From positions 3,534,001-3,598,000 of the forward strand of contig CM035355.1 in the NCBI GenBank assembly GCA_020137815.1: a stretch of DNA of 64,000 nucleotides. Reading direction: 5' to 3'. Origin of the DNA: Hormiphora californensis. Taxonomy: Eukaryota; Animalia; Ctenophora. The notes under the pieces are model-generated. The model saw only the letters and a program-made list of their open reading frames with translations, made no database searches and was not told the origin of the DNA. Made by a program: the position numbers and the translations under genes. Below, in pieces: positions 23,145 through 60,398 of this stretch (position 1 is its first letter; every line of letters begins with the position of its first letter).

Positions 23145-23956
23145 TTAACTGGGAACGATTCACCAGCATGGAATAATCAAAAGAGTTCATCTGATTTTAG
23201 TGTCCAACGTTAGCAACTACAAAATTAAAATGCACGATACGTGTTATTGCGTGCTTGTAGCTGTGAAACAATGGTGGCCTTGCCGACCCTGCCAAATAGT
23301 GCAGCAGTTGTTACTAACAATAAGTACAGAGAAATTTTAGTGCAAATTAGAAGATAGTAAGGACCATGGTGCTAATTCACAGTGCAGTTCACAAGTGAAG
23401 ATAGTTGTGCTGGAATCAGGAATGTCCCCCATGGTTGCAGAGATTTAAAAGATATCTAGTAGAGAAATATGTAGAACCAAACAAGCAACCTATCAGAATC
23501 TGTTACATGATTTGATAAGAAAAACGATTGGATTTGAACTTCACAACATATTCTTACCTAGCTAGATGCCTATCAAAGATATTTGGATTCATCGTTTGCA
23601 CTCCATCAAAGTGTTACCTCTCGTGATGTAGCCATTGAGAGCAATGTGATGGGGTCTTCATTTCACCCCATCGATATACCTGATGAAGAATACGCGGTGT
23701 CAATGGAATCGAACATGTGTGTTTTTCTTCTGTCTGGCTCCCTGGATTTGCCACCCAGTATCATTTCTCTCTCTCTTTCCCTCTCTCTCTCTCTCTAGCT
23801 CTCCCCTGTTCATTTCCCAGAATCCCCCACACAAATCCAGCTGTGTAAGTTGCTATAGCACCTTCTCCCACTCTCAGGGCTAGTATGACACCACACACTG
23901 CACAGGACCCCCCCCAATGGTATCTATTGCACCAGTAAATGTAGTATACTACTAAG

Positions 23957-30590: not shown

Positions 30591-33500
30591 TCAATTGGTC
30601 GTCTTGGCTTCCTCTGCTGCACTCTTAGCCTTCTTCTTCTTCTTCTTATTGGCTGTTTTCCTGTTGGCAGACTGGGCTAGTAGATCCTCGATCTCCTTAT
30701 TCTCAATCTTGTGTTCCGATTTACAGGTAGCCGGGTCGAATATACCTCCATTGATCCTGATATTACCGTTGGGTACAACCAGGACTGTGAATTTGAACTG
30801 AGCCACGGGCTGACCGGTCGCATCTTGCTGGACAGGGTACGCCTGGAGCAGCTCGTGCGTGACACACTCCTTCAATCCCATCTTAGCTTTGGTCTCCTCC
30901 TCAAAGGCTCGGAGAGTGAAGGGCATGAGGGTGAACCTGTTACACACGTCACTGTAGAATGCTCGGCTGGCCTTCATTTTTAACTGGTAGATCTCCTCTG
31001 TGCGCCTGTAGACGGTCGTGTTGGCGTTGTATTCCTTAGTCTTGCCAGTTCCAGGGGTGACAAACACATCCATGGCGTACACTTCGTGAACAGCAAACTC
31101 CATCTGAAATGAAAGGTTTCAAACTTTCATCAACTACAACGTAAAACTATTTATTGAGGATGCTTATTGTATTGGGGAAATGAGCCATTCGAAATAAATT
31201 CAACAGTGGTGACAATGCCACAGCCCCAAAAGTCACCGTGTTTTCTTGAATAATATGGGGAGGGGGACAATATTTGTTCAGAATTTCTCTCTTAGAGAGG
31301 AATGGGCAGAAGTTTGAGATAATTTCACTTACATCCTTGACTTCCTTCTTCTGGATCTCAGAAGGGTTCAGTACAATCTGTTTGTCAGTATCAGCCTCTG
31401 TTTGGTATCGCTTGATCTGGTAGGACAGCATACCCTCGAGAGGAGTGCACTTGTAACTGTCAGTTATCTTCTGTATCGTATCTGTAACCTGAGGTGGACA
31501 ATGAAATTGGAAGGCTGGAACACTCAAATGGGGGGGGGGGGAGAATTGATCTACCGATTCATGTGAGCCATACAAAGGGAACAATGATGGAAGATTGGTA
31601 CAATAAAAAGGTTTTATTTGTAGGATACAATTCTCTCTCACTCACCAGTCTCCCTCTCATTTGTTTAAAAACATACTCAGGTAGTAGGATACACATCAAA
31701 CACACATAAAATACACACTATAATAGTCACGTGACCACGTTGTGAAATGCGCGTCCCTTTACAGCCCGATATGAGTACTGAATAGAGTCCTCTATACAGC
31801 AATGCGCGCCCAAAACTAGCAATACCTCCCAGCGCTGGTCAAACCGCGGGAGTGTGGACGCCGGTTACTCAACATATGTATTACATGTATTACATCACAT
31901 ATCCCACATAACATCACACCTGTTTGTTACTGTTTCCAGCCTTGATCAGACGAAGGGCGACCTCTGAGCAGTAGTGGGCAGCCAAGATTGCATCGGCCAT
32001 AACCCCAGAGGCGGGGGCATCAGGTGTGGCACCGACCACGATAGTGTGTGCGACCACAGCAGCATACCTGAGAGAGAGGGGTGATGTCATCATCTCACAC
32101 ATTGATAATAGTTCACTGTCAGAAATAGATGCAGTCGGATTGGAGTGTGGGATAAACCAACCGCAATAAAGATGTGGGTGATCATTAGATATAGAGTTTA
32201 TAGAGATGTGGGTGATCATATGATCATTAAACCAAGCACGAGAAAAATGGGACAACACAGTGCAGACAAACAAACAGGTGTTTAAGTGCAGACAAACAAA
32301 CATGTTGTAACATTGTTGTTACATGTTGACCTACCATATCACAACTCACAAACCCATGACAACAGTGTCAAGCTACAAGCGTAGTGCGTACCCTAATATC
32401 ATCATTATCAAACAAACAATATAGTACAAAATGTCATGGCAATTTTACAACTTGCACAAGTTAATAAAATGTTTCAACACCTACCCATCAATATGTGCTC
32501 CAAGTTCGATCTTCACAAGATCGCCCTCCTTCACATTAACAACAGGATCACTTCTCAGGGGAGAGAAATGACAGACAACCTCATTTATTGACACACAAGT
32601 AGGGAATGCAATGCCTTTCTTCAGGTTTTTGTCCTTTTTGTAAAGTTTGGCCGTCTCATCTGTAATGAGTTTGTCACCAAAGGAGCAGATATCAATAACA
32701 CTTGCACCAGGAATTACTTCTTGGATAATAGCCTTCATCACCTGAGATGGAATAAAGAGAGAATTATAAATGTACCGTGTGTGAATTTAGTGAACTTTTA
32801 GCAGTCCTAAACGGAACCAAACTCAGCTATGTTTCTAATACAGTGTGGCCATTTAAAATATACCCCCAGCAAAACAGAGCACGTGTAATGGAAAACCACC
32901 CAACAATCAACAGTTTAAAATCAGTAGACATGTAATCAGTATAACCTGACCATCATTAGTTGAGGCCAGTTGACCATCTCTCTCTGTCTCTCTCTCTCCC
33001 TCTTGAAAAAAACAAGAGGCCAGTACATCGTGCATTATGTCTCAACTTACGAGAGAGGGTTACATTTCCTGAGCTTAGTTTGCCGTTTGTTTGTGTATTG
33101 CAACTATTACAGACCAAACGGGGGGGGGGCCCGCGTATTAAAATGTCCTTTAATGTCCCTCGATTTTTGGGTCATTAAATTGCCCGAGGTAATTTGGGAC
33201 ATTAAAAGACATTAAAGGACATTAAAGGACATTAAAGGACAAGAAATTTTAACTTCCAAAAACCATTTCACAATGTGTTACCAACCATTTCTACCGCCAA
33301 TGTACTACTAAAGGTCCCATCTTTCGATTCCAATGAATGTTCATAAATGTTCAGTGGTGATTGGGCTTGCTTTTGCGTGGGACGTGGGTGCGGTAGCTTT
33401 TTTACATGTGCATATTTCTAGCCTTGACGATATCACAAAATCATCTTATGAAACGAGTAGAGAAGACACCGAAGTCATAAAAGTGAAAGAGAACAGCTCC

Positions 33501-37674: not shown

Positions 37675-38161
37675 TCAATTTTGGATTTTCAATTATCTTA
37701 ATAAGATAATTGAAAATCCAAAATTGAGAATCTCTACAGTGTCCAGCTATGCATATGTTATCTCTTCACATCCCTAGAAAAATGACCCATAACTCATTTT
37801 TCGACTTATTGCATGCCATTCCAATTTGTTGGTGGAGTCTGGCGGAAATATATAGCACACTAAACTGAACTTAAGATCGATGCTAGAGCCAATGCCCCTC
37901 CCCTCCCTCCATGAAATTTCAAGACACCAAAATAAGATATCTTATTTTGGTGTCTTGAAATTTCATGGAGGGAGGGGAGGGGCATTGGCTCTAGCATCGA
38001 TCTTAAGTTCAAGTTTAGTGATGCTAGGGTTAGATTTTCCGCCAGATCTCCACCAACAAATTGGAATGGCATGCAATAAGTCGAAAAATGAGTTATGGGT
38101 CATTTTTCTAGGGATGTGAAGAGATAACATATGCATAGCTGGACACTGTAGAGATTCTCAA
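37675..38161. repeat. Two abutting palindromes: 53 bp (26-bp arms) and ~438 bp spacerless
   Basis: TCAATTTTGGATTTTCAATTATCTTA-A-TAAGATAATTGAAAATCCAAAATTGA (37675-37727); the large palindrome 37724-38161 is centred on GATATC at 37936-37941. The ORF track gives the same peptide on both strands here. Confidence 0.95.
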
Positions 38162-39651: not shown

Positions 39652-42600
39652 TTAGTTGTTCCCAAATCCGGCAGGTCGGCTGGGCCTGGTTAGTGGCTGC
39701 TGCATTGTGTACAGCCTTGCAAGCCTCCTGACTGGCGGCTCTGGTGACGAGACTTCCTCTTGCTTTGGCGGTGGATTTGGCTCCAGATTTAATCCGGCAG
39801 GTTTTGGTGGCGGAATTGGCGCCAGATTTAATCCGGCAGGTTTTGGTGGTGGAATTGGCGCTAGATTTAATCCGGTAGGTTTTGGTGGCGGAATTGGCAC
39901 CAGATTTAATCCGGTGGGTTTTGGTGGTGGCAGTGGTGGTATGTCAGGTCGATCAATTCCATTTCTGTCCCAGTAATTCTGTGTACAAAGGGGACAAGAA
40001 TAATCATTTACAGGGGACAATATTAAATAGTAGTAATTACATTGGACAACAATTAATTGTACTTACAGGGGACAACAAAACATGTAACAACATTGGAAAA
40101 GTTCATATTTCTATTCGGCTGACACTTCCAAATTAGGGAGAAAAAAATCAAGGTCTGTAATGTTATAAGATCCGGCCATCTTATCTGTAAAATCAAAAGT
40201 TGAATGGTGAGACAAGGGATCACTACATGTTGAAAAAGGGATCATTAGTAGTGACACTGCATCAGATATGGGATCACTACAAGTCTCTATTTACACTGGT
40301 GGTGGGAGAACTACCAGATCCGATTTGGATAAACTTAGTTAAAGCCCAGTTTTCTTTCTTAACTTTGCTCAGCAACCTCTGTAACACACAATTTATTGGA
40401 CAAGAAATATCTAGGACATACTACTAGGACACGAAAAGCATTCCTTATATTAATTGTAAATATTAAAAAGATACATTGCATTTTGAGTTAACCGACAGGA
40501 CAGAATTATATTAACCGTTCTCTCTTACCTCTAGTCGCTCAATATACCCCTCCAGACTATCGATCTTGTTCTTACTCAGCTTGATCACTGTTCCCTGTTC
40601 TGTCACCGTGGCTGTCAGTTGTGCGACCTGGGCACGGAGTTCTTCCAACTCTTTCTCCTTGGCTTGCAGCTCCCGGGATTGTACTTGTAGCTTGATCGCC
40701 TTTATCTGGTACATATTCTGGGGAGGGTAGGGGTGTCAGGGAACATGGGGGGATGGGCAGAGGGGGTCAGGGAACTGGGGCGAGGGGGGTCAGGGAACTG
40801 GGGGAGGGGTAGACGGATGTCAGTGAACTGGGGGGGGGGAGCGTGAGGGGTAGTTGTGAGGAGTGGGGTTGTTTTCTAATTTTCCTTCAATATGATAAGA
40901 TCTGCACATCTACAAATTGAAACCACAGTCAGTCGTGTACACACCTCCACATTACATTGATTGTACAGACTCTGAGAGCGTAACTTGACACGAGTCACGA
41001 AACCAGTGCATCTGTGTGTGTGTGTAATGTCACACCATTGCAGAAGCAGGAGACAACTTGTTGATAACATTTTAGCTGTGATACAGCGTGAGACATGACA
41101 GAAAATGTCCATAATTTTCAGAAAGAAAAAAAAAAACAAACCGGATTTACGCCACACTTTTTCCATTTCAACTTAAAATATATCTCACTCGCCTATGTAA
41201 TGTTCTAAATGAGATGTTGAGGGGAAGTTTGTTTCAGTGTTCCCGGTGGGTTGCAGATTGGTATAGAATGACACTCTGTTACCATGGTTACCACTATATT
41301 TAACTGCTGACACAATAGCATGATCCCACTTCACTAGGAAGTGCATTTGTAAACGCAACTAATCTGACATCAGCTGCGGTTCTGAATTACCAGATGTCCA
41401 AATATGTCCAGCTTTTGTCTACTTTTGGACAAAAGTCTCTCAAAAGTGGCCCTCTAACATGATACTAAGGGGAGCTAAGGGGGTCCATATGATGTCATTG
41501 CAGGGGGGGGGGGTCCCCTATACCATGGAGAAATTACAAAATACAGAAAGCTACCAACTTTAGTTATGTATTATATTATTGATTATAGTATTAACCAAAA
41601 CGCGGAGTTTTTACGTCAGCCGACCCGAAACCGGATTAAATTTGGCCACCCGCTGGTCTCAGGGCCTCCAAATATGTCAAAATATGTCTGAATTGTCATT
41701 TGGGGTCATTTAGACCTTTTAATTACATGTAATTACCCTTTAATTTCATGAAATTACCCTATAATTACATGTAATTACATTTTAATTACATGTAATTACT
41801 TCCAATTACATTCCAATTACTTCAGCACCTCGAGAGCTTTCGAACGCACCCTAGAACACCTTTCTACTCCTTCTAATTGCCGAGTTCTATATACCCCTTA
41901 TTTTGACTGTTTTTCGCGTCCTACCCCTTATAGGTTTGGGTATGGCCATCGCCACACCCCCTATACGTCGCGAGACCTCGAGACCTTTCCAACGAGCCAT
42001 AGAACACCTCTCTACTACTTCAGGGGGCTTCAAAACTTTCACTCTAAAAATATCTATGGTTTATGGTTTTATGGTTTATGGTTTTACTCGACCAAAACGC
42101 GAAGTTTTTACGTCAGCCGACCCGAAACCGGATTAAATTTTGCCACCCGCTGGTCTCAGGGCCTCCAAATATGTCAAAATATGTCTGAATTGTCATTTGG
42201 GGTCATTTAGACCTTTTAATTACATGTAATTACCCTTTAATTACATGTAATTACATTTTAATTACATGTAATTACTTCCAATTACATCCCAATTACTTCA
42301 GCACCTCGAGAGCTTTCGAACGCACCCTAGAACACCTTTCTACTCCTTCTAATTGCCAAGTTCTGTATACCCCTTATTTTGACTGTTTTTCGCGTCCTAC
42401 CCCTTATAGGTTTGGGTATGGCCATCGCCACACCCCCTATACGTCGCGGGACCTCGAGACCTTTCCAACGAGCCATAGAACACCTCTCTACTACTTCAGG
42501 GGGCTTCAAAACTTTCACTCTAAAAATATCTATGGTTTTATGGTTATGGTTTATGGTTTATGGTTTTTTTTTCATCTGGTATTAAGGGCCTGTCGGCTCG

Positions 42601-45600
42601 GCCCCGTTGTTTTAGTTTTAGGGGGGATGTTTTAGGGGGGATGGGTTGAGTTTGGGTTATATTCGGGTCGGGGGGCCTTGCCAGGCCCCGAATGGTTTAT
42701 GGTTTATGGTTTTTTTTCATCTGGTATTAAGGGCCTGTCGGCTCGGCCCCGTTGTTTTAGTGTTAGGGGGGATGTTTTAGGGGGGATGGGTTGAGTTTGG
42801 GTTATATTCGGGTCGGGGGGCCTTGCCAGGCCCCGAATCGACCAAAACGCGGAGTTTTTACGTCAGCCGACCCGAAACCTGATTAAATTTGGCCACCCGC
42901 TGGTCTCAGGGTCTCCAAATATGTCAAAATATGTCTGAATTGTCATTTGGGGTCATTTAGACCTTTTAATTACATGTAATTACCCTTTAATTACATGTAA
43001 TTACATTTTAATTACATGTAATTACTTCCAATCACATTCCAATTACTTCAGCACCTTGAGAGCTTTCGAACGCACCCTAGAACACCTTTCTACTCCTTCT
43101 AATTGCCGAGATCTGCATACCCCTTATTTTGACTGTTTTTCGCGTCCTACCCCTTATAGGTTTGGGTATGGCCATCGCCACACCCCCTATACGTCGCGGG
43201 ACCTCGAGACCTTTCCAACGAGCCATAGAACACCTCTCTACTACTTCAGGGGGCTTCAAAACTTTCACTCTAAAAATATCTATGGTTATGGTTTTATGGT
43301 TTTATGGTTTATGGTTTTTTTTCATCTGGTATTAAGGGCCTGTCGGCTCGGCCCCGTTGTTTTAGTTTTAGGGGGGATGTTTTAGGGGGGATGGGTTGAG
43401 TTTGGGTTATATTCGGGTCGGGGGGCCTTGCCAGGCCCCGAATAAAACTGTAATAGCAGTGATTAACTGTGATTCACACGCACCTTCAGTTCGTCAGTAT
43501 CAATTGTAGAAAGGTCCAACTCGTTCTCGTCCTCCAGATCTCTATCAGATGGGAACAACTTGCCACAATTAATTATCATTATCTGAAGGGGAGAATGAAT
43601 AACAATTAATTATCACTAGAACTGAACAGTTGAAAAAGTCACAAGGCCGATTGGACTATCCCGGCAGCGAACAAGTTCATTGAATTTAGTTCAAATAAGG
43701 GGATGGGATTTTTTATACCTCTGTAACTTTTTTCAGCTTCTGAATATCCTCCATTTCCTTCTCCAGACTATGGTCAGCACTGGTGTTTTTCAGGATGGTC
43801 GGAGAAAACACGATGGCCAGATTGTTGAGGTCCATTAGATTGGAGGCTGAGTAGGTTTGGACCTTGTAAAGGAACATACACAACATCTAGGAAGGGGTGG
43901 GTTAGGGGGTTGATGAAATTGAGCAAAATTTATACACCAAAAAATATCCCAAAAAGTGTATTTCTAGTCCACTTTCTACTTCCAGTAAACTTTCTAAAAT
44001 TAAAACTTACTCTAAGTGTGTTAAAGTTGGTTGGAGGAATCCGTTTTAGCAAGTGCTGCATCTCATTCAACCCTTCATTCTGAAACAACACACAACTGGA
44101 ATTAGGTACACAGAGGAACACTTTAGGAACACTTTAGGTACACAGAGGAACACTTTAGGTACACAGAGGAACACTTTAGGTACACAGAGGAACACTTTAG
44201 GTACACAGAGGAACACTTTAGGTACACAGAGGAACACTTTAGGTACACAGAGGAACACTTTAGGTACACAGAGGAACACTTTAGGTACACAGAGGAACAC
44301 TTTAGGTACACAGAGGAACACTTTAGGTACGCAGGGGAACACTTTAGGTACACAGAGGAACACTTTAGGTACACAGAGGAACACTTTAGGTACACAGAGG
44401 AACACTTTAGGTACACAGAGGAACACTTTAGGTACACAGAGGAACACTTTAGGTAGATAGAGTCTAGAGAACACACTCAGACTCATCCGAGATGAATTGC
44501 TCAGAGTTCAGGATCTCTCCATTCTCCACACAGAGAATGAGAGCTGGTACTTTCCTACAAAGTCTTTCTGAACTTCATAGCAACTGGTGACCCCTGTCAT
44601 AACTGATACTCGAGACTTTGTAATGTCGCACACGGTTCGGAGTTGTGAGACAACTCCTGGTCATGAAAAAAGACACTCTTACTCTCCTTGCTCAACCCTG
44701 TTTCACCGCACGCACAAATGTAAAGGATCAGGGTTCGAACAAACACACTCTTACTTGATCTACCGAACCCTCACAAAGGTGTGAGCCACACACACTCTTA
44801 CCGGATTAATTTCGTATGTCAGAATGATTGCCACAAAATCTTCGTAGAGCGAACTAGGAATGATGGAGTCAGGAAGGACTCTGAGATAAAGTTTTAGGAG
44901 GCTTGCTACTGTGTGGGTGTCACATCTTATCTCAAGATTTGGCTCTAGCCCCTCCTGGAAATCCATCTTTAGCTGCTTCACCTGTGTATTGAGAGAGGTG
45001 TCAGAGGGGTGTGAACTGTGAGAGAGAGGTGTTAGGGGGGTGTGAGAGAGGGGTGTGCGTGTTAGGGGGTGTGAGAGAGAGAGGTGTTAGGGGGGTGTTT
45101 GTTACAGTGAGGACTGAGGGTGATATATCATTTATTTGCTGGAAGAGGGAAAGGCGTATAAAGGATATTGTAATGGTCGATCTGATATTATTAGGTCTAC
45201 CACAGTACCAGTTTGTTAGTCCATAGATGACAGATAGAGAGTACTAAAAAGACTAAATACTCCAGTAACTCTATGTATTAGGCTTAGGGTGAACAGCAGA
45301 CTAAATCCTAAACCTATTATAGATGGACGTTATTTTCTTGTTATTCTCTAACTGCGGAGCTAGAAATAGAGATACATGATAGTACATGGATGTGGTGTTT
45401 TATTTCAGTGTGCTACTCAAAGCAGAGTTTCGGATAAACTCCCCATTTGTGTAAACTGTAAACTGCAAACCCCTTGTTGTATAAACGTTAGTACACTGTA
45501 ACACTCGGACTTCGGAGTTTTTAATGGCTACAGTAACAGTGTATACAGATACAGAATCCATGATATTTGTGCAATGTCCTAAGGAGCTAGTATGGCTTCA

Positions 45601-46584
45601 AAGTCAGTCACAAGTCACATCTCATTACACAAGTATGTGTGTTTGTGAGGGTAGACGACTGTAGCTGATGGTGCTTGATCACTCATCACTTGTTATTATC
45701 TTATATGTCCGAATTTACTCAGCGTGCAATTATTAACTATTAAAAACTCCGAGCATTGCATGTATATTAAGCTTCCTAGTGAGACCTAAAAAACGAGCTA
45801 ATGAGCAGATATATTACTAATAAAAGCCTATCCATTAGTACTTCTGTACTAAGTCACACACACACAGTAAAAGCCTATCCATTACTAATAATGCTCTACG
45901 TAAGTACTAACCGTCCGTTCGTTGCCAGGGAGACGAAAGATGCCATTCTCGACAATTCTAGCGGGAGTATCCAAGAAGCCTATACACTGGGAAATCACCC
46001 TGGGAACGGTTCCTCCACCGTGAACTCTTTCTCTGCGGACCGAAACCTCAATCAGGGTTCCAAACATTCCTCCACCAAACGGGGCATAGCTGCAGTAGAG
46101 GGGGGTTGATGATGTTAGAAAGTGCATGATCCCTTGTTGGTCTTTATTGATCTTGTCTTACCAAACACTGGATATGGCATCTATGAACTTTTCTCGTTCT
46201 GACTTAGTTTCACACATAAAATGGCAAGTATCATCTCGGTCTATCAGATCAAACTTGTAAACACCATCAGCAGATGGTGGCTGTGTTATCCTCTTCCCTG
46301 AGAAAAAAACGAATTAATTGAAGGACAGTTATGCCAGGGATTATTATCCTGTAATTTTGTAATTTTGTAATCCTCTTTGCACAGATATATCCACTACTTT
46401 TACTGTCAACAACTTTGCTCCTCCCCACTTTACCTGGCAACTCTATTTCACCCAAGGGAGCAGAGCTGGCATCGTCCTTTTTGTAGTAGGAGAGTGTGAT
46501 GCCCTTAATCACGACCCATCTCCGCTCGAACCTCTTAATCGCCCCCGAGGTCTCCTTTTTGAGCCACCCCGATGTTATTGACAT
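39652..46584 (-). CDS. ARHGAP24: PH + RhoGAP + coiled-coil protein (ARHGAP22/24/25 family)
   Basis: Exons 46584-46434, 46297-46162, 46089-45912, 44981-44802, 44079-44011, 43886-43719, 43582-43484, 40717-40529, (40378-40295), 39978-39652. PH domain SGWLKKE..RRWVVIKGITLSYYK; family linker FGGGMFG; arginine finger GIFRLPG; HTVASLLKLYLRVLP; NLMDLNNLAIVFSPTIL; coiled coil; Pro-rich tail. The N-terminus may extend upstream (acceptor at 46615). Confidence 0.88.
39763..39940 (-). repeat. 39-bp coding minisatellite encoding (PIPPPKPxGLNLx) x ~4.5
   Basis: CAGATTTAATCCGG(C/T)AGGTTTTGGTGG(C/T)GGAATTGGCGC repeats inside the RhoGAP terminal exon. Confidence 0.92.
41593..43446 (-). mobile_element. Tandem array of a ~600-bp Helentron/Helitron2-like non-autonomous element (module order A-A-B-B-A-B)
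   Basis: ~475-bp module A starts at about 41594, 42091 and 42841; ~150-bp module B at about 42545, 42693 and 43295. On the minus strand the unit begins TTT-ATTCGGG..GGCC-hairpin..CCCGAAT, carries the subterminal IR CCGACCCGAA/TTCGGGTCGG and ends with hairpin AAAAC-TCCGC-GTTTT then GGTT. Internal AATTACATGT and ATGGTTT repeats; no TSD. Confidence 0.68.
44103..44453. repeat. 21-bp intronic minisatellite (~16 copies)
   Basis: TAGGTACACAGAGGAACACTT repeated; lies just upstream of a RhoGAP acceptor. Confidence 0.96.
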
Positions 46585-46726
46585 TACATGACAGGGTCCA
46601 GACGCATTCCCACTACTATAAAGACGGACTTTTAGAACTTTTCAAATGCTTTAAACATCTCAGTGGTCAAAAAACGTTGAAAACTGAAAATTGCGGTTTA
46701 AAAAAACCAAAAACTTGGCATACGTT

Positions 46727-48945
46727 GCAGGCCCCTTATAATATAATATAAGGGGCCTGGAGGGAATACCGCGCTAGGGGGGAATACATAATCAATCATA
46801 TCTCCGGTTCCAGATAAGGTACAGAAATCGTTTTGGTAGCGTTGGAAAGAGGAAGATAACAGCTTTCAAATGCAATCGGTTTCAGGTCTCTATCTTATCA
46901 GGAACAGGAGATATGAACCAAACTCCGCAAAATCGAGTGCGGTAAAATCAAAATTTGAATGAAATTTTAAAAAAGGTGTCCCTGTACGGTGGCAGATTCC
47001 GGCCAAGTGTTTTTTCAATCAAGTGAAATATTTTTGTTTGAAGTTTTATAAAAATTTTATTTCAAAATAAAAATAAACATGTCGTTAAAATTATTGGCCG
47101 GAATCTGCCACGCGGGTGGCAGATTCCGGCCAAGATTCTCAAAAAACCTTGGCCAGAATCTGCCACACACGTGGCAGATTCTGGCCAACCAACTAAAACT
47201 TGTTTATATCAAAGCGAAAACCACTGTACCCGACTAATTTTGATACGCTGAATCACGTAAGATACTTTTCCAATCCCTCAGAGGTCGGAAAAGTGTCATA
47301 ATTGACCATAATTGGGTCTAATTGACCCCACTTACAACTTTTCACCTTGAAACGATAGACGCTTATGTGAAGGCACTTTTCCGACTAATTTTGATACGCT
47401 GAATCACGTAAGCAACTTTTCCAAGTCCTCCGAGGTCGGGAAAATGCCTTAATTGGGTCTAATTAGCCTTAATTGCTCAATTAGGGCACTTTGCCGATCT
47501 CTGAGGACTTGGAAAAGTTGCTTACGTGATTCAGCGTATCAAAATTAGTCGGAAAAGTGCCTTCACATAAGCGTCTATCGTTTCAAGGTGAAAAGTTGTA
47601 AGTGGGGTCAATTAGACCCAATTATGGTCAATTATGACACTTTTCCGACCTCTGAGGGATTGGAAAAGTATCTTACGTGATTCAGCGTATCAAAATTAGT
47701 CGGGTACAGTGGTTTTCGCTTTGATATAAACAAGTTTTAGTTGGTTGGCCAGAATCTGCCACGTGTGTGGCAGATTCTGGCCAAGGTTTTTTGAGAATCT
47801 TGGCCGGAATCTGCCACCCGCGTGGCAGATTCCGGCCAATAATTTTAACGACATGTTTATTTTTATTTTGAAATAAAATTTTTATAAAACTTCAAACAAA
47901 AATATTTCACTTGATTGAAAAAACTCTTGGCCGGAATCTGCCACCGTAGTCCCTGCAAGAATCTGTGACGTCACTTTTTGAAAACAACCCATCTTTCAAC
48001 GGCTATTGCTCAGCCTCCTTAAGTCCAATTAACTTCTCTCAAAAACAGCAAGGTATACTCCATTTTTTTTCAACTGTTCACCCCCCAAAGTCGTGCGCGG
48101 AATTGTTTTGCGCGTCTATCACATGTTAACGTGTAGCGCGCGCCACGAAAATTCTAAATTTCACTGAAATTTCGATTTTGGGTGAACAGTTGAAAAAAAA
48201 TGGACTTTAAAGTCGGATTTTTTGAAACTGTCACCCCCCTGAAATAACAAAATTTGCCATATCTCCGGTTCCTGATAAGATAGAGACTTGAAATTTGGAG
48301 GTTCGGAAGAACTTAGCAAGATCTTCGTAACCTCCAAATTTCAAGTCTCTATCTCGTCAGGAACCGGATTTATGGTCATTTACGAAATTTGAAAATACCC
48401 AGGGGGGTGACAGTTTCAAAAAATCCGACTTTAGATAATCGTCAGATCTAACAACTGGTGAAAGAATCAAGTCAAACGGACTTCAGGAGCCAAAGTTATA
48501 AGCACCGCCGTTTTTTCGACCGCAAAGTTATCTTCGACCCAGCCGGGATCAGGCCAAACGCGCGCGCGGCATTCCCTCCAGTCCCCTCGTTGCGGGGGTG
48601 CGCGCATGAGGGGGCTGCAGCGCATTCCAAACCAAAAACGCAATTTAAAGTTTTTTGAAAATTTTGGAAATTTCCATTTTTCGTGCGCGCACACTGCCTT
48701 GCTAAGTTTTGCAGTACATTATATTAAATTTGGCGCGTTACTGCAAAACGTGGCGCGCGAAAGGGCCAGGGCCCGCAGGGAACATTTCAGAAATTTTCAA
48801 CTTTCAAAATTTTAAAAATCGTGGTTGTGTTTGGGAGGAAAACGTTAAAATCTGGGTTAGGGCTATCCGTTAGGGTCTGGTTAGGGCCCTAACCAGACCC
48901 TATAGGGTTTGGTTTGGGGTTATCGGTTAGGGCTATCGATTCTCT
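46727..48945. mobile_element. Composite non-autonomous element rich in internal inverted repeats (host of the foldback below)
   Basis: Palindrome CAGGCCCCTTATA..TATAAGGGGCCTG at 46727; recurrent ATATCTCCGGTTCC(A/T)GATAAG in both orientations; IR 48209-48432; GGTTAGGG-rich end. Boundaries are approximate. Confidence 0.5.
46985..47948. mobile_element. ~960-bp foldback element with ~450-bp near-perfect arms
   Basis: TACGGTGGCAGATTCCGGCCAA ... TTGGCCGGAATCTGCCACCGTA; GTCCCTG is duplicated on both sides. Confidence 0.9.
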
Positions 48946-48957
48946 ATCAGTTACCGC

Positions 48958-49242
48958 CAGGGGCGAAGCAAGGCTGGGTCCATTGGGTCCAGGACCCACT
49001 TTTTGGACGAGAGAGGAGAAGAAATTGGGAAAACTTGCTAAAAAGTGAAAAAATCAGCAAAAACAAACAAAAAAAAGTGAAAAAATGAGCCGATTTTCAT
49101 TTGAAAATACGAATGCGCGCAAGAAAAAGCTTTATCGGCAGCGCTATTGACCAATAGGGTCCAGACCCAGCTCGCGCGTTACATTTTCTGCAGCGCTGGA
49201 CCCAAAAATTTTTTCGTGAATGAACGCCACGCACCGCCCCTG
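48958..49242. mobile_element. hAT-type MITE
   Basis: CAGGGGCG ... CGCCCCTG termini with an exact 8-bp TSD GTTACCGC (48950-48957 and 49243-49250). Confidence 0.88.
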
Positions 49243-49409
49243 GTTACCGCTTAGTTTACTCAAATTGGCCATGTGGTTGCATGGCTATAGCCGTTTGAAA
49301 AAAGTCGGTCTAAGTGTACTCTTTTGGTAGCACGCACCTGTAAACACGCTGCAAGGCACCCATATTATAATCGCGCCCTGTTTGGGACAACCGCGGGTTT
49401 CAAAAATTG

Positions 49410-49446
49410 AAACTTTTCAACACTACTTTAAACAAATTAATTTGAG
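49410..49446 (+). other. Ctenophore spliced-leader exon sequence (no donor site), fused to the LINE 5' end
   Basis: AAACTTTTCAACACTACTTTAAACAAATTAATTTGAG matches, as I recall it, the Pleurobrachia/Hormiphora trans-spliced leader. It is followed by ATCT, not GT, so this is not an SL RNA gene. Confidence 0.8.
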
Positions 49447-49461
49447 ATCTCACCGCAGGTT

Positions 49462-50697
49462 TATGGAACCGCCCATTGGGGGCAGACCGACGCTAGAGGA
49501 TGGTACAGCCAATCCTCCATCCCAGGATCCCGAACCGAAACAGCGTCTACAGCAGCTATTAAGGGACCAGAACCTTCTTGAATATGTAACTGAAGAATCT
49601 GAAGTACCGCAAGGTAGACATCCGACCCGACAAATACTTTGGACACTCCTGAAAGAGGCCTACCAGACGGTATGTGTACTATCAACTGCCCTCGCTACCT
49701 CTCAGCCCGAGCACCTTGACACTGAGGTTGGGATCGTTAACCCGGATTCTCTCGATAAACGGCTGGCAGAATTCCAAAAGGAAATCCTTCACACTGTCGA
49801 ACAATCTATTCTCAAACACCACGCCCAGCCTTCTTTTGCACAGCTTGCTGCACAGCTTGCTTCGAAGGAAGCTTCACCATTGACTCCTGGCCGTAACCAA
49901 CCTACTGTACCAAATCGACCTGTAGCTCCCGCTTCTACCACAAAAACCTCTCCCACACGGAGGACGATTGTAGTTGACTGCTGTGAAAATGACGTTGCCG
50001 ACATAAAGAGGTTAAGTGAAAGTGCCCTTTCAAAGACAAAGGTCTCTAAACTGGACACAAAAAGAAACTCTGTCATAATAACTGTTCCTGAGAGTGAGGG
50101 GATAAAAGCTGCAGAGGCCCTAACTACTGGACTGCAAGGAAAATCCGTTAGAGTAAGGGCATCTCCCACCAGTAAACTCTCTATCCTGAACTTCCCTATC
50201 ACAGACGAAATCAAGCAAACTGAAAACCGGGTGCAAAGAAATGCTGCTATACTCGAATTATTGCAGCAAAAAAAAATGACGAACTTAATCATGAAGATGT
50301 TGACGTGGTCTATTTCAAAAACAATGCAAGCAGTCCGGATTTATGTACGGTAGGCATCAGGCTGCCCACCCCGATCAAACGTCAACTGCTCAATCAACGA
50401 GTGGTCTATGTCGACTACTCGGCGTGCAAGGTTGTTGACAGGGTCCACGTTATCCGATGTTACACCTGTCAGGGGTTCCATCACACTTCTGAAACGTGTG
50501 TTAAGGATGCAGTATGTGCCCATTGTGCAGGAGGCCATGCGACGAAGGACTGCAGTGTCAAATTAAACACGAACTTTACCCCGTCTTGTACTAACTGTTC
50601 GTCAGAGGGCTATCTGAATATTTCACACGCTGCAAGCAGCCAAGACTGTCCAGTTTATAAGTCTAAATTTGATGTTGCCAAGTCAAAAAACCAGTAG
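49462..50697 (+). CDS. LINE ORF1 (gag-like, three CCHC-type zinc knuckles); one frameshift at the A9 run 50268-50276
   Basis: ORF-track pieces 49382-50353 and 50305-50697 join across the homopolymer. [40 protein letters not shown]. Confidence 0.85.
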
Positions 50698-50705
50698 AGC
50701 TTAAC

Positions 50706-53621
50706 TTGGCCACCCTTAACTGTTTTTCTATTCGTAACAAGCTTTATGATGTGTTATTTAGTGTGATTGACAACGATATTGATGCAATATGTTTGACTGA
50801 GACATGGCTTAATCTTACCGAGAGTGCTATTGAGAGTGAGGTACAAGAGCTTGGTTACAAATTGATCAGTCGGTCGCGTGGCTCTAGAGGGGGTGGTGTT
50901 GCCATCCTCATGAGGAAATCCTTCCACCATGTTCAGGTAACACACTCCTTTTCATCATTCGAGTGTGTGGAAACCCTAATCACACATCCTCAAATTAAAC
51001 CTCTTCGACTTCTTGGCGTATATCGCCCTCCATCGAGTCCTACAGCCTTATTCCTAGATGAGTTCGAAACGCTGTTACATGAACTTTCTGGTAGATCAGG
51101 TGAAATTGTTTTCACAGGTGATTTCAACATCCATATCCACGACAACAGCTCAACTTTTACTAAATCATTCCTCCAATTGTTGGATGACCATCTTTTTCAT
51201 CAGTTTGTAAATGAACCTACTCATATAGCAGGGGGTATACTTGACCTTGTTGTTGCTAAATCACTCCCCAGTTCATCTCCGATCTCTAACGTGGAAGCTA
51301 ACATGATCCCTGCGGCACCTGATCATGCATTGGTCTCTTTCAATTTGCACATTGGTGCACCTACCAAGCGGAAGAAGTACATTTCAGTTAAGAAGAGGAA
51401 CATTGAATCCCTTGACTTGGACTCATTCAGAAGTGAAATCCTGAAATCGCCACTCTGTGACCTTGATATCTTCACAACAAATCTTGTTGAGGCTATTGAA
51501 CTCTTCGAGGAGCTTCTTACGGAGTTTCTGGATGAACTTGCCCCAGTCGTTGAAACTATAGTTCCGGAAGAACCCAGTCCTAGATGGTACAACAGCAGTT
51601 GCCAAGATGCAAAACGTCGCCGAAGAGCAGCAGAGAGAAAATATCGAGCCGCATTGAAAAAATCGGTGTGTATCAAACAACTACTTGATTCTCTTCGTAC
51701 TCTTCGAGAAGAGTCAAAGGCTGCCACCAAGTACATTGTTGGAACTAGAAATGACTACTATCGTGGCCGGCTTGAAGAGGCAGGGAATGACTCTAAGAAA
51801 ACCTACAGAATCATGAATGGACTACTTGGACAGGAACGTAATCCTACAATTCTACCAGAACACAGTGATGAAACTGAACTCTGCCAGAAGTTCATGACAT
51901 TTTTCAAGGAGAAGATAGACAAAATCTACCAAGATATTCAGAGTTTGCAATCAGATGAACATCAGGAGTTTTCTTCTAGTTCCACTACTGACAACGTTCC
52001 TCCACAGTTTAACTGTTTCCAGCCTGTTACCAGTGAGGACTTGGTCAAGGTTATACGATCCCTAAACTACAAGGCGTGTGACTTGGACCCTGTTCCGTCG
52101 AAGCTCATGGCTGCATCTGTCCATGAACTCATGCCTGTTATCGATTCAATTGTCAATGGAAGTTTGGAGAGTGGAGTTTTTCCATCGGCGCTGAAGAAAG
52201 CAGTTATCCGTCCTGTATATAAAGGAAAAGGTCTTGACTCGAATAACTTGGGGAGTTACAGGCCCATCTCCAACCTCAGTTTTATTTCCAAAATCATCGA
52301 GAAGTGCGTATCCATTCAACTCACTGCACACCTTGAGCAGCATGGACTATTTGCGTCTGTTCAATCTGCCTATAGGAGTAAACATTCTTGTGAAACGGCT
52401 ACCCTGAAAATCTTCAACGACCTTCTTGTGCTGACGGACAAGCGTAGAAAAGCTGTACTTTTACTTCTGGATTTGTCGGCTGCGTTTGATACTGTTCCCC
52501 ATTCTACACTTCTCCGCCGTCTCGAGCACCTGTATGGTGTTAAGGGAGTAGCCCTTGATTGGTTTACGTCATATCTTCAAGAGCGGAAGGCATTTGTAAA
52601 AATTGGACAAGGTCAATCATCAGAGGTGGAAATCTGTATTGGAGTACCCCAAGGGTCTATTCTTGGGCCTCTTCTTTTTGTTCTTTTCACTAAGGATCTT
52701 GAGACTATCGCAGCTAGACATGGTGTTAAAATTCATTTATACGCAGACGATTCTCAGCTATATATCAGCTTCACCAACAACAACTGGGCACAGTGTGAAA
52801 GTCAGTTGCAAAATTGTTTTACCGAGGTTGAGAAATGGATGGCATCGAGTTACCTAAAACTCAATCCTTCGAAGACAGAGCTGCTATTCATCTCATCAAG
52901 AACTGACAGAAGTCCCAACCCGATTGGCTATAATGATACACTGACACTAAGAGGTATCAGTCAGTCATCAAAAGCAGACATTACCCCATCTCAACAGGCC
53001 AAAAACCTTGGAGTTATCTTTGATGAAAGGTTAACCATGAAGGCTCATGTCTCAAAAGTGGTGAAGGAATGTAACCTGAATCTCATCAATCTTCGGCGTA
53101 TTGCTGACAAACTTTCGAGGAAACACAAGGTTCAGCTTGTCCACTCCTTGATACACTCACGTCTTGATTATTGCAATGGACTGTTAATTGGTGCAGATCA
53201 AAGTGACATTTCTCGACTACAAAAAGTTCAAAACTCTGCGACACGATTTGTTTTCGGCAGAAGGCAGTGGAGAGGAGTGACTAAACTCAGAAAGCAGCTA
53301 CATTTTCTTCCTGTTTCGGCCAGGATCGAGTTCAAGATTTGTCTCATGGTTTTCAAATGTCTCAACAATCTTGCGCCATCATATTTACAGGATATTATCC
53401 AACGGCGACAACCTAAAATCAAATCTCTGAGGTATGACAATGATGATACCCTCCTTGAGAGAGACTTCTCCACCAAATACAAAACTTCTCAGCGTGCTTT
53501 CCAGGTATCAGGACCTAGGCTATGGAATAGCCTACCTGCCTCTATCAGAAATTGTTCAGATGAGGTCATCTTCAAATCGAGGTTGAAGACCTACCTTTTC
53601 GACAAGTCATACGACCACTGA
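50706..53621 (+). CDS. LINE ORF2: apurinic endonuclease + reverse transcriptase (intact, 971 aa, no initiating ATG)
   Basis: APE motifs CLTETWL, GGGVAI, YRPP, GDFNIH, LDLV, PDH; RT motifs [42 protein letters not shown]; L2-type C-terminus [22 protein letters not shown]. Confidence 0.96.
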
Positions 53622-54057
53622 TCTGTAACCTTGAGTTGTTTACAGCACCTTTTTCTACCGTGTTTTTTATTTGAAACGTGGTTTTCAGCTATCTTATTAA
53701 TCTAACTTATTAAATACTCTAACTTATTAATTAATCCACATTTACATCCAATGATGATTTAGTTCAATGATATATTTTGTATGTACGTGTGTGTTGCATG
53801 TGTGTTGCATTTGGGTGAGTGCTGTGTGTGTTTGTGTGTGTGTTTGTGTGTGTGTATGTATTTAGTAAAGTAGTAAAGTAAACTTTACTCCCAGTAATGG
53901 CTTAGTTCTAACCTTTTTTCTTGGTCTTTTATGGTACACCGCTTTAGAAGGCAGTAAGAGTGCTCTAGCGTATAAATTGGTTTTTATAGCGTTATCATTT
54001 TTTTACTATATATGTCAAAAAGCGGGATATTAAGTGTGAAATTGAATTGAATTGAAT

Positions 54058-56110
54058 TGAACCACATCAAAGCGTGGATGTCCAAGAACTTCCTCAGACT
54101 CAACCCCAGCAAAACTGAAATCATCGTGTTAAACAACAAACATGATAAAACAGAAAACCCTGAAAGCCTTCAAACGATGAGCAACCATGAATCTACAAAG
54201 CCACTTACACTAGTAAGGAACCTTGGTGTATTTCTGGACTCAGAGCTCTCCTTATCTGGTCACGTATCCAGAACCGTAAGGACGTGTCAACTAGCCCTTA
54301 TGAATCTATGGAAAATCCACAGAATGTTGGGTGTTAATCTGAAAGTCAAACTCGTTAACAGTTTAATACACAGCAGACTGGACTACTGTAACAGCCTCCT
54401 TGCTGGTTCTTCTGCCAAAGACATAGGTCGATTACAGAAGATTCAAAACTCTGCGGCCCGTTTCGTCTTTGGACAACGCCTCTACCAAGGCACCACAAAC
54501 CTTCGCAAACAGCTTCATTTCCTACCCGTTCGAGAAAGAGTGCAGTACAAGTTGTGTCTACTGACATACAAAACACTGAATGGTATAGCCCCACCTTACC
54601 TATCGAAGATGATAACACTCCGTCAACCGAAGTTAAAAAGTCTACGAAGGGATGCTGACAAAACCTTACTTGACAAGAACTATGCCAGATATTGTTCGAG
54701 TAAAGGTGCATTTAGTGTCGCTGCTCCGGAAATATGGAATAGCTTACCTTCTTCTCTTCGGGAAAGCTCATCCATCACATCATTCAAATCCAACCTGAAA
54801 ACCCACTTCTTCCGGAAGGCATACGAGTGTTAAAAAAAAACAATGTGTGAAGACAATGTATACTACGAGAATTGTGGTAGAGAGATGAGAGCGAGTTGAG
54901 GATCCTGAATTAGAGTGTGAAACCGTGAAGTTAGAACGACCAGTACTCTTTTCACTCACGCTTTCTAAACTGGTCTTTCTTACTAATTTATATTTAATAC
55001 TTATTCTTTTTATGTGACGGATCCCCAGAACTCGGTAAAAAAAAGAGCCTGGGTTAAAAAATCAAAAAAAAAAAGAAAAAAAAAAAAAAAAAAAAAAAGT
55101 AAAGCAGAAAAGATCCAACAAAAAAAAAAGAAAAAAGAAAAGAAAAAAGACAACAAAAAAAAGGGGTAAAAAAAAGGGGGGAAATATAAATTATAAATGG
55201 ACACCAAAATTGGGGTATGGGGGTGGAAGGGTTGCAGTGAGGTGTTGTGCAGTGGAGCGTGTTGGGCTTTACTTATAGAAGTGCAGCCAGTATGGTGTAG
55301 TGCAGTGGAGTGTGCTGGGCTTTACTTATAGAAGTGCAGCCAGTATGGTGTAGTGCAGTGGAGTGTGTTGGGCTTTACTTATAGAAGTGCAGCCAGTATG
55401 GTGTAGTGCAGTGGAGTGTGTTGGGCTCTACTTATAGAAGTACAGCCAGTATAGTGTGGTGCAGTGGAGTGTGTTGGGCTTTACTTATAGAAGTACAGCC
55501 AGTATGGTGTAGTGCAGAGGAGTGTGTTGGGCTTTACTTAAAGAAGTGAAGCCAGTATGGTGTAGTGTAGTGGAGTGTGTTGGGCTTTACTTATAGAAGT
55601 ACAGTCGGTATGGCATGGTGTAGTGGAGTGTGTTGGGCTTCACTTATAGAAGTACAGCCAGTGAGATGCAGGCTACAGCGAGTATGACTTCTCTTCCGCT
55701 CCTTGGTTCTCCTACAGGTGAAGTAGTCGGATCCTCAGTCCTCACCCAGGTTGTATAAGACAGTATCGATTGTTTAAGGGCTAAAGCCCTGGTGCTAAAG
55801 TATTTATTTCTGGATCCCTAGATCCAAGAGCATATTTTATCAATCTGCAGTAAGCAGAGACAGTATATTTCATCATCCGATTTAAATGTTGTTTAACTAA
55901 CAAGACCTACCTTCAGAAAAATACCATCTTGCAATAACAATTGGAAATCCTTGGTATAGAACTAACCGCTTTTGAAACGAGAGTTAGTGAGATGAAGTCC
56001 GCACCAAGTGATGCAAGTAGTCAAGACCTAACAGAACTCGTGTTGTTCTTTAAAATATGGACAATGAAAAGCGGACAATAAATGTATATTTGTATTTGTA
56101 TTTGTATATT
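54058..56110 (+). mobile_element. 5'-truncated second L2 element (ORF2 C-terminal 258 aa plus long 3' UTR)
   Basis: WMSKNFLRLNPSKTE...RNLGVFLD...[11 protein letters not shown]...LHFLPV...APEIWNSLP (54057-54833), related to but distinct from the upstream ORF2. Probable tail AATAAA..(TATTTG)n at about 56078-56110 (3' end tentative). Confidence 0.8.
55240..55661. repeat. 53-bp tandem repeat (~8 copies)
   Basis: GTGTAGTGCAGTGGAGTGTGTTGGGCTTTACTTATAGAAGT(G/A)CAGCCAGTATG repeated. Confidence 0.93.
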
Positions 56111-57785: not shown

Positions 57786-58404
57786 AATCTCTCTCAGTGA
57801 GGGTCCTTTTGTTACCTTGGCAACACAATTACCAGTCATTTGTTTGCTCCCTGCTCCCCTTTGACAGAGAGAAAAAGAGAGAATGAGAGAGCGAAAGAGA
57901 AAGAGAGTGAGACTCACTGAGAGAGAGGGAACACGAACAGGGCAGAGACCTTTAGACACACTGGCCCAGAATTCTCTGTTCCCAGTTCTCATTTGTCACA
58001 GTACTGACAGCTGGACGACTGATTACATACACATACATTAGAATGATTCGACTGAGTGCTAGTTTTGTGTGCTGCATTTCTTTAGTAGTCTCAGTACATG
58101 AATCACAGTAGTAGTTCTTTATGAAGCCTTACAGATCTACATATAGAGCTGTGTACTACAAGGCGCTCACTGTGCATGTGCCGAATGTTATTTGACAGTA
58201 GCTGACACTATACCTAATGTGTGAGTATAGTTCATTTTGTGAGTGCGTGTTGGTGGCTTAATTGTTTGACGGAGGGTCTCACGTGGTAAGTGCCTCCTCC
58301 ATTATCACATTAGTAACTTGCGATTTTAAAGTAAGTACATATATTATAAAATCATTTTTCAGATTGTTTTTTTTCGTAGCAAAAAAATTGTCTGCCGGTT
58401 CAAA

Positions 58405-59699
58405 TTACTTTGGGTTGTATTTCGCGACCAGTTTCAACACATCACCATATACAACGTCCTTTGCATTCAACCCCCACACAAAATCCATGTGATTTAGCTT
58501 GTCCCAGAACCGATTGAGAACCAGGATCTCCGGATTGAGTTGGCCCTCAAGCCAGGCCACATCACGAGGGTCCGCTAGGAAGTCGTTACCTCCCGCCAGG
58601 AGCGCTGTTGGGATATCCACCTTGGACGGATCATATTGTGGTGGTGTGGTGGAGTTGTAGTGCGCCATATTCCCCTTCTTCCCGTAATCGTAGCCCTGTA
58701 ACTTCTGCTCTCGGAGCAGCTGAGCCCAGTGAATCATGTTCTGTACACTCGTTCCCGCCGGGGTGTGTGAAACATACACGGGGATCCGGGTGTTGTTCAG
58801 GTTGCTGGTATCATAGCCACATAGTAAGAAGATCACATTCCGACATATTACCTCCTTTTCAAGAGGGCAAACCAGGCTCGCCAGTAGCTTCATTTCCCAG
58901 TTACTTGGCGCAAAGTCGTGTACACCAAATAACTTGAAAAGGTTCTCAATCTCCGGTTCAAGGAGGTTTAGTACTTTCACCAGGCCTTCAATGTGCGTTA
59001 TTCTGGCTACTGGAGCAAGGGCCGCGAAAACATTCACTTTGGATGCCAGATCAGGGTTACTAGAGAAACCGATAAATCCAATTAGGGTTCCCTGGGAGTG
59101 ACCGGCGTAGGAGACAGTCTTCACTCCTGTCTCGTTAACTACATAATTGATCATGGCTGGAAGGTCAATGGCCGCGAATTGATCAAAGGAAAACTCCCAG
59201 AATTCCTTACTCTTTTTGGAGAGCGAGGTGTGGTTGGTGGAGTAGGTGTTACCCCGGACGTTTCCCATCCAGACATCATAACCTTGGTCAGCCAGGATAA
59301 ACCCAAGACTCTGCTCTGGGTAGTTCATCACCCAGGTTGCGCTGGAGTCAAGGAGACCATGCTGGAGAAATACCACGGGACCTTTACCTGTTGGTTTGGT
59401 TAGGTTAGATTGGTTTGGGTTAGATTATATTGGTTTCGTTCATGGCCATGGTTTGGTTTGGGGATTGGTTAGGTTAAGGATGGTAACCATATGTGACTGA
59501 AAATAGTCTTTGGTTGGTGTCCTCCCTTACCTGGGATTCGATGTATTCCCAGGATATACCCATCTGATGTTGTTACCCAGTGTTCCTCGGAGGGGTAGCC
59601 CCAGTATCGAACCATTTCAGGAGTGGACATATGCTGCTCAGGGTCCTCCTTGGCAGAGACCCCCAGGAAAGGGAGGAGAAGAAGGAGGGCAAGCAACAT
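58405..59699 (-). CDS. LIPA: Lysosomal acid lipase / gastric lipase family alpha/beta hydrolase, 2 coding exons
   Basis: Exons 59699-59531 and 59387-58405. Signal peptide MLLALLLLLPFLGVSA; GYPSEEHWVTTSDGYILGIHRIP; VFLQHGLLDSS; GYDVWMGNVRGNTYS; nucleophile GHSQG; NDFLADP; NHMDFVWG. Confidence 0.95.
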
Positions 59700-59771
59700 T
59701 TTGGGAAGTGTTATCGAGGTTTTGTGAGTTGCAACTCCATATGGCGGCGTCAAATCTCGTGACATTTGGGG

Positions 59772-59922
<151 letters not shown>

Positions 59923-60398
59923 AGAGATTGAGAGATTGAGAGAAAGAGAGAAAGAGAGAAAAAGAGAGGGTGAAACTGAAAGATAGAGGAAGTAGGAGAG
60001 ATAAAGAAGAGGAGAGATAGAGAGAGAAGAAGTGGAACAGCCAGAGAATTCTGAGATGAAAAAAAAGAAGTTTCTAGCTTCTCGCTTCCGAAGAGTTCTC
60101 GCATTACAAATTGTGTTAGTGACCTACACTCTCTCGTAGGCATAATCAGATTCATGAAGGAGGGCTATCTTTTTTCTTCTCCTGCTGCAGTAATATTATA
60201 GTGACACTTTTTATTCCTCCACGACTTTTTTCCACGTACGAGAAGTTCATTACACGGTGTCTTGTGGCTCATCCCCTGGGCGGAAGTCTGATTCAAATAA
60301 CTTGAATTAAATGGCGCCCCAAGTGTTTTGACGACTTTGCGTAACACGTTACACCTAGGTCGGACCCCCACCAACCTAAGGATCGGACTGTAAATATA

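Follow-up and report, generated by a model that had tools for sequence, protein, structure and literature searches.

A ctenophore LINE that begins with the host spliced leader was probably copied from trans-spliced RNA

Introduction

The 5' end of a LINE must be rebuilt in each round of retrotransposition, and the known answers to this problem are internal promoters and self-cleaving ribozymes. HDV-like ribozymes are found at the 5' end of R2 elements. Other non-LTR elements adjoin spliced leader (SL) sequence for a different reason, as NeSL, SLACS and CRE use a restriction-like endonuclease to target the array of SL genes. Published sections on NeSL and SLACS describe them as retrotransposons with a restriction-like endonuclease that target SL genes (PMC4640811), and in the LINE Perere-3 the 5' end is, in the part of the source drawn on here, defined by self-cleaving twister-variant ribozymes (PMC8501958). 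CR1-group LINEs include an L2 lineage with a type I ORF1, which is also listed there for CR1, Jockey, I and others (PMC4120745, in part).

Published suggestions of retroelements that carry a leader themselves already exist. In a flatworm survey, LTR/LINE elements bearing partial leaders were counted at 597 loci, which the authors proposed might be retrotransposon RNAs integrated after trans-splicing (Calvelo et al., 2025; PMC12582326, relevant sections), and six SL-bearing retroelement loci were described in S. mansoni, with misassembly left open in the corresponding section (Boroni et al., 2018; PMC5832876). In Hydra, approximately 30% of the TE Iso-Seq reads are stated to bear a leader, including a full-length CR1 transcript (PMC12220107, in part). 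During mRNA recycling in dinoflagellates, leader-bearing RNA is reverse-transcribed and an AG within the integrated leader is re-used as acceptor (Slamovits and Keeling, 2008, as related in parts of PMC3229502 and PMC12014239). For the ctenophores Hormiphora californensis and Mnemiopsis, 718 and 491 genomic leader copies have been counted, respectively, and the section giving these counts does not characterize them (PMC8527503). Our literature search, whose coverage of subscription journals and Repbase Reports was thin, found no ctenophore SL-headed LINE, two-leader family or self-renewing LINE acceptor; ctenophore leader sequences were absent from the available parts of PMC3795323, PMC4664967 and PMC7986045, and the available part of PMC12460157 does not mention LINE heads. 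The present work offers better evidence, a sharper test and a new phylum.

Results

A spliced leader at the 5' end of a LINE

The window, a stretch of 64,000 nt of H. californensis DNA, contains a LINE of approximately 4.6 kb consisting of a leader, ORF1, ORF2 with endonuclease (APE) plus reverse transcriptase (RT), and an AATTG tail. Its features are as follows.

49410..49446, + strand: SL-A, the terminal 37 nt of the ctenophore spliced leader, donor-less, at the LINE 5' end; the same leader is found at the start of 84 mRNA-like contigs and of the SL gene L062
49447..49462, + strand: 5' UTR of 16 nt, with the leader join at 49446/49447 and an unused acceptor-like CAG at 49456-49458
49463..50697, + strand: ORF1, encoding CCHC zinc knuckles; frame lost in the A9 run (50268-50276); no Pfam family
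49467..49486, + strand: head motif AAC-GCCC..GGGCAGA, sole copy in the window, found at other SL-headed elements
50700..53621, + strand: ORF2, 973 open codons, APE endonuclease and reverse transcriptase (RVT_1, E 1e-33; Exo_endo_phos, E 1e-11)
53622..54059, + strand: 3' UTR with four terminal AATTG repeats (54040-54059), read from the sequence; the final letters overlap the target

Direct reading of the window bore out the original prediction that a 37-mer without a GT donor lies at 49410-49446. Its proposed identity as the ctenophore SL was also upheld, as all 37 letters are identical to the last 37 nt of the 44-nt leader published for H. californensis (PMC8527503, leader sequence section). 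The 37-mer occurs once in the window and was not matched in 100 shuffles with up to three mismatches allowed. It is followed directly by AT, not GT, leaving no donor, and the window copy, which lacks GT, a 5S array and an SL intron, thereby differs from an SL RNA gene with its GT donor, structured intron and 5S linkage. The ATG of ORF1, formerly placed at 49462, 15 nt past the leader, is at 49463, 16 nt past it.

The element has the layout of a non-LTR retrotransposon, with APE then RT in ORF2, a CCHC ORF1 upstream and a short-repeat 3' tail (four AATTG here; (ATT)n in the related metagenomic elements L028 and L044). CCHC knuckles are present in the window ORF1 and in five relatives, and a profile search against Pfam gave no ORF1 match. 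Only distant RTs were recovered with ORF2 from the PDB, and its C-terminal LHFLPV..RI.FK motif has what we take to be an L2-like look. The description of the element as nearly intact is borne out with a single defect: ORF2 is open through APE and RT, and the frame of ORF1 is broken at the A9 run; the covering contig (one per run) has two fewer A at 50268-50276 in four of four runs, and the break is either a slip in the window copy or an assembly error. Neither the 5' head (including the head motif) nor the 3' end, examined for an L2-type stem-loop (z -0.88), folds better than shuffles. Among 30 listed between-species differences, 14 fall at third, 10 at second and 6 at first codon positions, which does not clearly indicate purifying selection.

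The target site and its surroundings

The sequences on either side of the LINE appear to be two halves of one older element.

49379..49409, + strand: probably the left part of the older, 5'-truncated LINE that was the target; start placed where upstream-repeat contigs leave the window
54057..54833, + strand: right piece of the older LINE, reading L-N-H-I-K-A-W-M onward; identical to ORF2 at 128 of 254 aligned residues

A high-copy repeat ends upstream near 49378, and no continuation of it was detected beyond the older LINE. Positions 49396-49409 read G-F-K-N then TG and 54057 onward reads L-N-H-I-K-A-W-M, both in register with the RT motif of the window ORF2 and with E-C-L-A-S-I-K-N-W-M of L028; this register, first spotted by eye, has a score matched by 34 of 20000 random places. 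To judge from these letters, the target of the window LINE was probably a truncated, older LINE, entered where the sequence resembles the tail of the incoming element and with the loss of approximately one base; a 7-nt duplication AATTGAA is an alternative reading. A 9-nt target duplication was dropped, since the shared string is only AATTGAA and the older-LINE register fits better.

This flank bears directly on whether the element was inserted site-specifically into SL genes or SL-like sites, in the manner of NeSL, SLACS and CRE. The stretch GGGTTTCAAA just upstream of the leader, pointed out in the original prediction as leader-like, does match 9 of 10 letters of the leader 5' end (a degree of likeness with a frequency of 5.5e-5 per base across the window), but it is better read as coding sequence of the older LINE, for which reason we ascribe the likeness to chance. 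The 3' flank is older LINE rather than SL intron, both flanks keep the RT register and neither is SL-gene sequence, other copies have unrelated flanks, the endonuclease is APE and not restriction-like, and the SL array of L062 is free of the element. Site-specific insertion, including the earlier idea of an SL-like target, is thus largely refuted and in our view very improbable. Nor is there support for 49250-49410 as an SL gene promoter, as this flank comprises high-copy repeat and older LINE while the true SL gene L062 has a GTAAG donor in a 5S array.

Several other features of the neighbourhood were recorded. Within the high-copy repeat, 48950-49250 is a MITE, presumably hAT-like, with ends CCAGGGGCG/CGCCCCTGG and the 8-bp duplication GTTACCGC, and MITE-free contigs exist. 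A 965-bp near-perfect palindrome (97.6%) occupies 46985-47948, with smaller ones at 22514-23148, 37724-38161, 48208-48433 and 61903-62140. Host genes lie near the LINE at 40500-46650, 58400-60200 and 62950-63800; one is a PH+RhoGAP gene (Pfam), and from their translations we take others to be a lipase-like and a phosphagen-kinase-like gene. Those neighbouring host genes that were read are on the minus strand, and no plus-strand source of read-through was identified among them.

The leader-LINE join in independent samples and in a second species

Seven of the 22 listed runs (X1, X2, X3, X4, X5, X7 and X11) were examined as contigs, which reveal neither RNA starts nor caps. X1, X2 and X3 derive from one sample, X5 from another, and X7 and X11 from a second species approximately 8% diverged. 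X1 and X4 are taken to be RNA runs, the former because its leader depth is 3 million compared to approximately 100 on the upstream repeat.

Contigs of the window LINE family begin inside a leader in four samples and two species. The 5' contig of the family opens with 23 leader letters in X1 and X2, and with 25 in X5 (depth 577, no differences over 410 letters), while in the second species a family contig of X7 carries 10 leader letters and 32 differences in 409. A related family, represented by a leader-headed 5.0-kb contig, occurs in the two RNA-like runs X1 and X4, so that X1 holds leader-headed contigs of both families, and X11 has both a related family and an inverted piece that start from the leader. 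The join at 49446/49447 is identical in every run contig reaching that point. None of the seven run contigs that reach the 5' end has a non-leader head, six beginning in a leader and one at the letters TTGAG that two leader types share (see below).

Misassembly of two repeats could be invoked given that none of the listed contigs extends across the join by 31 letters in each direction, or likewise across the flank-leader junction at 49409/49410; the missing bridge at the join is explained by the leader being a high-copy branch point. The join is nevertheless crossed by contigs of independent samples, which include 23 leader letters in X1 and X2 and 25 in X5, and each of the separately assembled metagenome contigs L016, L025, L057 and L060 contains the flank, the leader and the LINE together. 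The junction artefact that the original prediction had named as a danger can thus be set aside, and misassembly is the remotest of the explanations considered here. Scattered leader copies are evident in the DNA-like runs X3, X5 and X7, where mixed sequence follows the leader in 23, 23 and 28 contigs (agreement 0.40-0.42, with a consensus other than GT) and precedes it in 19, 23 and 26.

Two further contigs deserve mention. In X11, 49446-49485 is inverted and joined to 49526 onward, which resembles a 5' inversion ending at the last base of the leader but could be a library chimera. X5 contains a further leader copy after AAATTG in the high-copy repeat that lies upstream of the window LINE (49268/49410), hinting at a preference for tail-like targets.

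Leader-headed LINEs in marine metagenomes

A scan of metagenome contigs for an exact 26-mer of SL-A, to which elements with a decayed leader or none are invisible, returned 96 loci, comprising 84 mRNA-like loci, one SL gene (L062) and 11 genomic-type loci. The SL-A leader had no matches in viral or GTDB contigs. The leader is found on many unrelated mRNA 5' ends: 84 of the 96 loci start at it or no more than 7 letters away, and a host Pfam family directly follows it in 68 of the 81 mRNA-like loci that were scanned, none being RT or APE, in a scan that left out 7 of 106 ORFs (L029, L058, L076, two of L062, and the second ORFs of L008 and L057). Four loci with 3-7 upstream non-leader letters (L009, L040, L042, L063) were nonetheless classed as mRNA-like, and three with 1-6 such letters (L028, L044, L086) as genomic-type, the latter on the basis that they come from the same assembly as four embedded copies and that L028 and L044 run past their tail into flank. 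A strict rule of at least 17 upstream letters leaves nine loci, namely one SL gene, six firm LINEs and two probable ones.

L062 (1-1945) is a ctenophore-type SL RNA gene, with the leader, a GTAAG donor and a structured transcript (fold z -3.4); the gene alternates with 5S rRNA, the tandem unit measuring 778 bp. The array is free of inserted elements, and the SL RNA matched no Rfam family. All 11 genomic-type copies outside the SL array head LINEs, eight firm (three with APE+RT, one with APE and four by ORF1/UTR homology) and three probable, with no host-gene retrocopy among them.

L025, L028, L044: genomic-type SL-headed LINEs, firm; APE+RT
L057 (1-2289): SL-headed LINE, firm; APE and a Cys/His-rich ORF1 unrelated to the window ORF1
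L016, L060: SL-headed LINEs, firm; ORF1 related to the window ORF1 (E about 1e-12)
L088, L095: SL-headed LINEs, firm; match L016/L028
L086, L049, L091: probable LINEs; weak homology and the head motif

For L086, L088, L091 and L095 the assignment is based on 300 downstream letters each. The ESM Atlas returned unnamed clusters for the L007 ORF (Ctenophora the commonest taxon, Baculo_FP a weak lead only) and no match for L091, on which account both are graded only as probable. The families are 32-66% alike in ORF2, and the ORF1s of the window type, of L057 and of L049/L007 are unrelated.

The leader itself is exact for 28-43 letters in the 11 genomic-type loci, with 5' junctions that vary over this range and unrelated flanks, whereas the 5' UTRs adjoining it are 46-92 of 100 alike across the families. 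Eight of the 11 have at least 14 exact leader letters beyond the search pattern, an outcome with probability 6e-4 at 10% divergence if related elements are counted as independent. No tandem leader relic was found in any of the 96 loci, and TTTYAG directly follows the leader in 3 of the 11 genomic-type heads. The head motif is present in 3 of these 11 and in 1 of the 84 other loci (L007, itself LINE-like).

The head motif, carried by L007, L049, L086 and L091 despite their unrelated ORF1s, is a candidate promoter element, splicing signal or RNA hairpin. In L016, L025, L028, L088 and L095 a pyrimidine-rich 5' UTR ends in TTTTAG just before the G-ATG of ORF1, approximately 145-165 nt past the leader; this resembles an internal outron with a second acceptor and could yield a separate trans-spliced ORF1 mRNA. 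L057 has 351 letters upstream of the leader in an assembly otherwise of spliced mRNAs, suggesting a read-through precursor or DNA carry-over. One leader-headed contig, L003 (69-1148, 2789-3868), holds two complete tandem G-alpha ORFs and may be a dicistronic transcript or a chimera.

A second leader-like head at the same join

The family contig of X3 (depth 109) has a different head, in which 21 non-SL-A letters are followed by the shared TTGAG and then by the same join at 49447. This 26-letter head recurs exactly at 31133-31158 of the window, within a longer stretch.

31114..31158, + strand: SL-B, homologous to SL-A, lacking a GT donor and lying within a PA2G4-like gene (225-nt intron); the X3 LINE head equals its final 26 nt

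The 45-nt stretch is thus both repeated and homologous to the SL exon, to which none of 5000 shuffles aligned as well. X2, with the SL-A head, and X3, with the SL-B head, come from the same sample and both continue at 49447 with one difference in 722-732 letters. The X4 contig begins exactly at 49442, the TTGAG common to both, as expected from a branch between two heads. On these sequence comparisons SL-B is a putative second leader joined at the same acceptor as SL-A. SL-B had no matches on a host mRNA or a donor-bearing gene among the 96 loci (which were selected by SL-A), GTDB contigs, viral contigs or paper text, none of which is a fair test. Ctenophores reportedly have several leaders. 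This is partly echoed for mertensiid ctenophores in the section available of PMC3229502.

At 31114-31158, SL-B lies antisense to the PA2G4-like gene, 8 nt from a splice acceptor and with no LINE behind it, and a possible GAAATGA duplication flanks SL-B together with approximately 18 extra letters.

Two leader-type heads at one join favour trans-splicing over a one-time capture. Under the latter, a leader would have been captured once and inherited with the LINE, transcription would start at an internal promoter to which the 49467-49486 motif could contribute, and the second head would have arisen by template switching or conversion at TTGAG. Internal promoters are usual in LINEs, the head motif is common to several SL-headed elements, and selection could account for the exactness of a captured leader. 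Capture would, however, require separate events, each at the exact 3' end of the exon, in families with unrelated ORF1s, as well as a precise head swap within one young family, and it has to accommodate a leader that is exact while the adjoining UTRs differ by 8-54%. We therefore regard it as improbable, and the stable capture of the SL exon that the original prediction had offered as its second option is disfavoured. Its first option, copying of a trans-spliced RNA to the 5' end, is the best reading of the leader identity, the fixed join, the two heads and the exact SL, and the window LINE was very probably copied from trans-spliced RNA.

Proposed cycle

A full cycle in which the leader serves as its own acceptor is the version we lean towards, with less assurance than for trans-splicing itself. 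A transcript from flanking DNA would first run into a LINE copy. The spliceosome would then attach a new, capped leader of either type (SL-A or SL-B) at 49446/49447, discarding the old leader and everything upstream; for this step we observe the join and infer the splicing and the acceptor. The short UTR would allow ORF1 to be translated like a host mRNA. Target-primed reverse transcription would start where the target resembles the tail, with TTGAA microhomology and without a clear target duplication, and proceed to the 5' end of the leader or fall a few letters short of it, the junctions being observed and the chemistry taken from established LINE biology. After integration, the terminal AG of the leader is predicted to act as acceptor in any read-through RNA, because it is the sole AG at the join in every copy seen and no relic accumulates; the lack of relics in 96 loci fits removal of the old leader whole. 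The mRNA recycling of dinoflagellates offers a precedent for putting the AG of a leader to use again (PMC3229502).

Evidence against the cycle includes the minus-strand orientation of the neighbouring genes read (see above) and the nature of this AG. The leader ends in GAG, and GAG is a rare and weak acceptor. Four cis acceptors of the PA2G4-like gene, read by eye, are all CAG, and a better-looking CAG at 49456-49458, 12 nt downstream of the join, is skipped in the copies seen. The weak GAG would be avoided if the trans-spliced RNAs came from source copies still equipped with a promoter and outron of their own, with leader-headed copies being dead ends unable to be re-spliced. Such source copies would explain the two heads and the exact leader equally well, and contigs can conceal a rare outron-bearing branch, given that X3 shows SL-B only although SL-A exists in the same sample. 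Against this, no non-leader heads occur in the seven run contigs reaching the 5' end, and the same join is shared by two species that differ by 8% and by families whose ORF2s are 32-66% alike, which is hard to reconcile with progeny that always lose their promoter. We consider source copies unlikely, though less so than capture, and continue to prefer re-use of the leader as acceptor.

Discussion

Our data suggest a third way of rebuilding the LINE 5' end: if the trans-splicing reading is true, host machinery supplies both the end and the cap, and the LINE may need no promoter of its own. Whether several ctenophore LINE lineages gave over their 5' end to SL trans-splicing with the leader as self-acceptor, such that most of the 718 and 491 scattered copies are retrotransposon heads, is a proposition to which we give even chances. 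SL-headed LINEs could in any case account for the 718 scattered Hormiphora copies, which is testable. Such scattered copies are not SL genes and mislead long-read gene models, and the leader is usable as a tag for full-length LINEs. SL-headed LINEs also suggest that SL trans-splicing could be maintained in part by a selfish force.

The closest published observations are those in flatworms, where genomic leader pieces without the remainder of the SL gene are likewise attached to retroelements. The flatworm report, in the section considered here, is a brief suggestion on discarded loci, whereas the ctenophore material shows intact full-length LINEs, a fixed join, two heads and several families. 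The Hydra report concerns the RNA level only, and its relevant section makes no statement on leader-headed genomic copies or on 5' end renewal (PMC12220107). The two heads at one join allow a direct test, lacking in the flatworm and Hydra remarks, in which the leader type of the RNA is compared with that of the source copy.

Dinoflagellate recycling, as summarized in the sources available, involves host retrogenes with tandem relics, while in ctenophores the passenger is an autonomous LINE and none of the 96 loci has a relic; this difference points to the terminal AG as the acceptor. NeSL, SLACS and CRE share with the window LINE that a non-LTR element adjoins leader sequence, but, as far as the sections on them extend, they differ in that the window LINE is APE-type, is dispersed and takes the leader along. 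In its APE+RT ORF2, CCHC-knuckle ORF1 and short-repeat tail it resembles the CR1-group/L2 LINEs as partly described, and L2 is its candidate clade. As in the LINEs with 5' ribozymes, to the extent these are covered by the source, RNA processing rather than a promoter would set the 5' end if the trans-splicing reading holds, with the difference that here the host spliceosome would act and would supply the cap.
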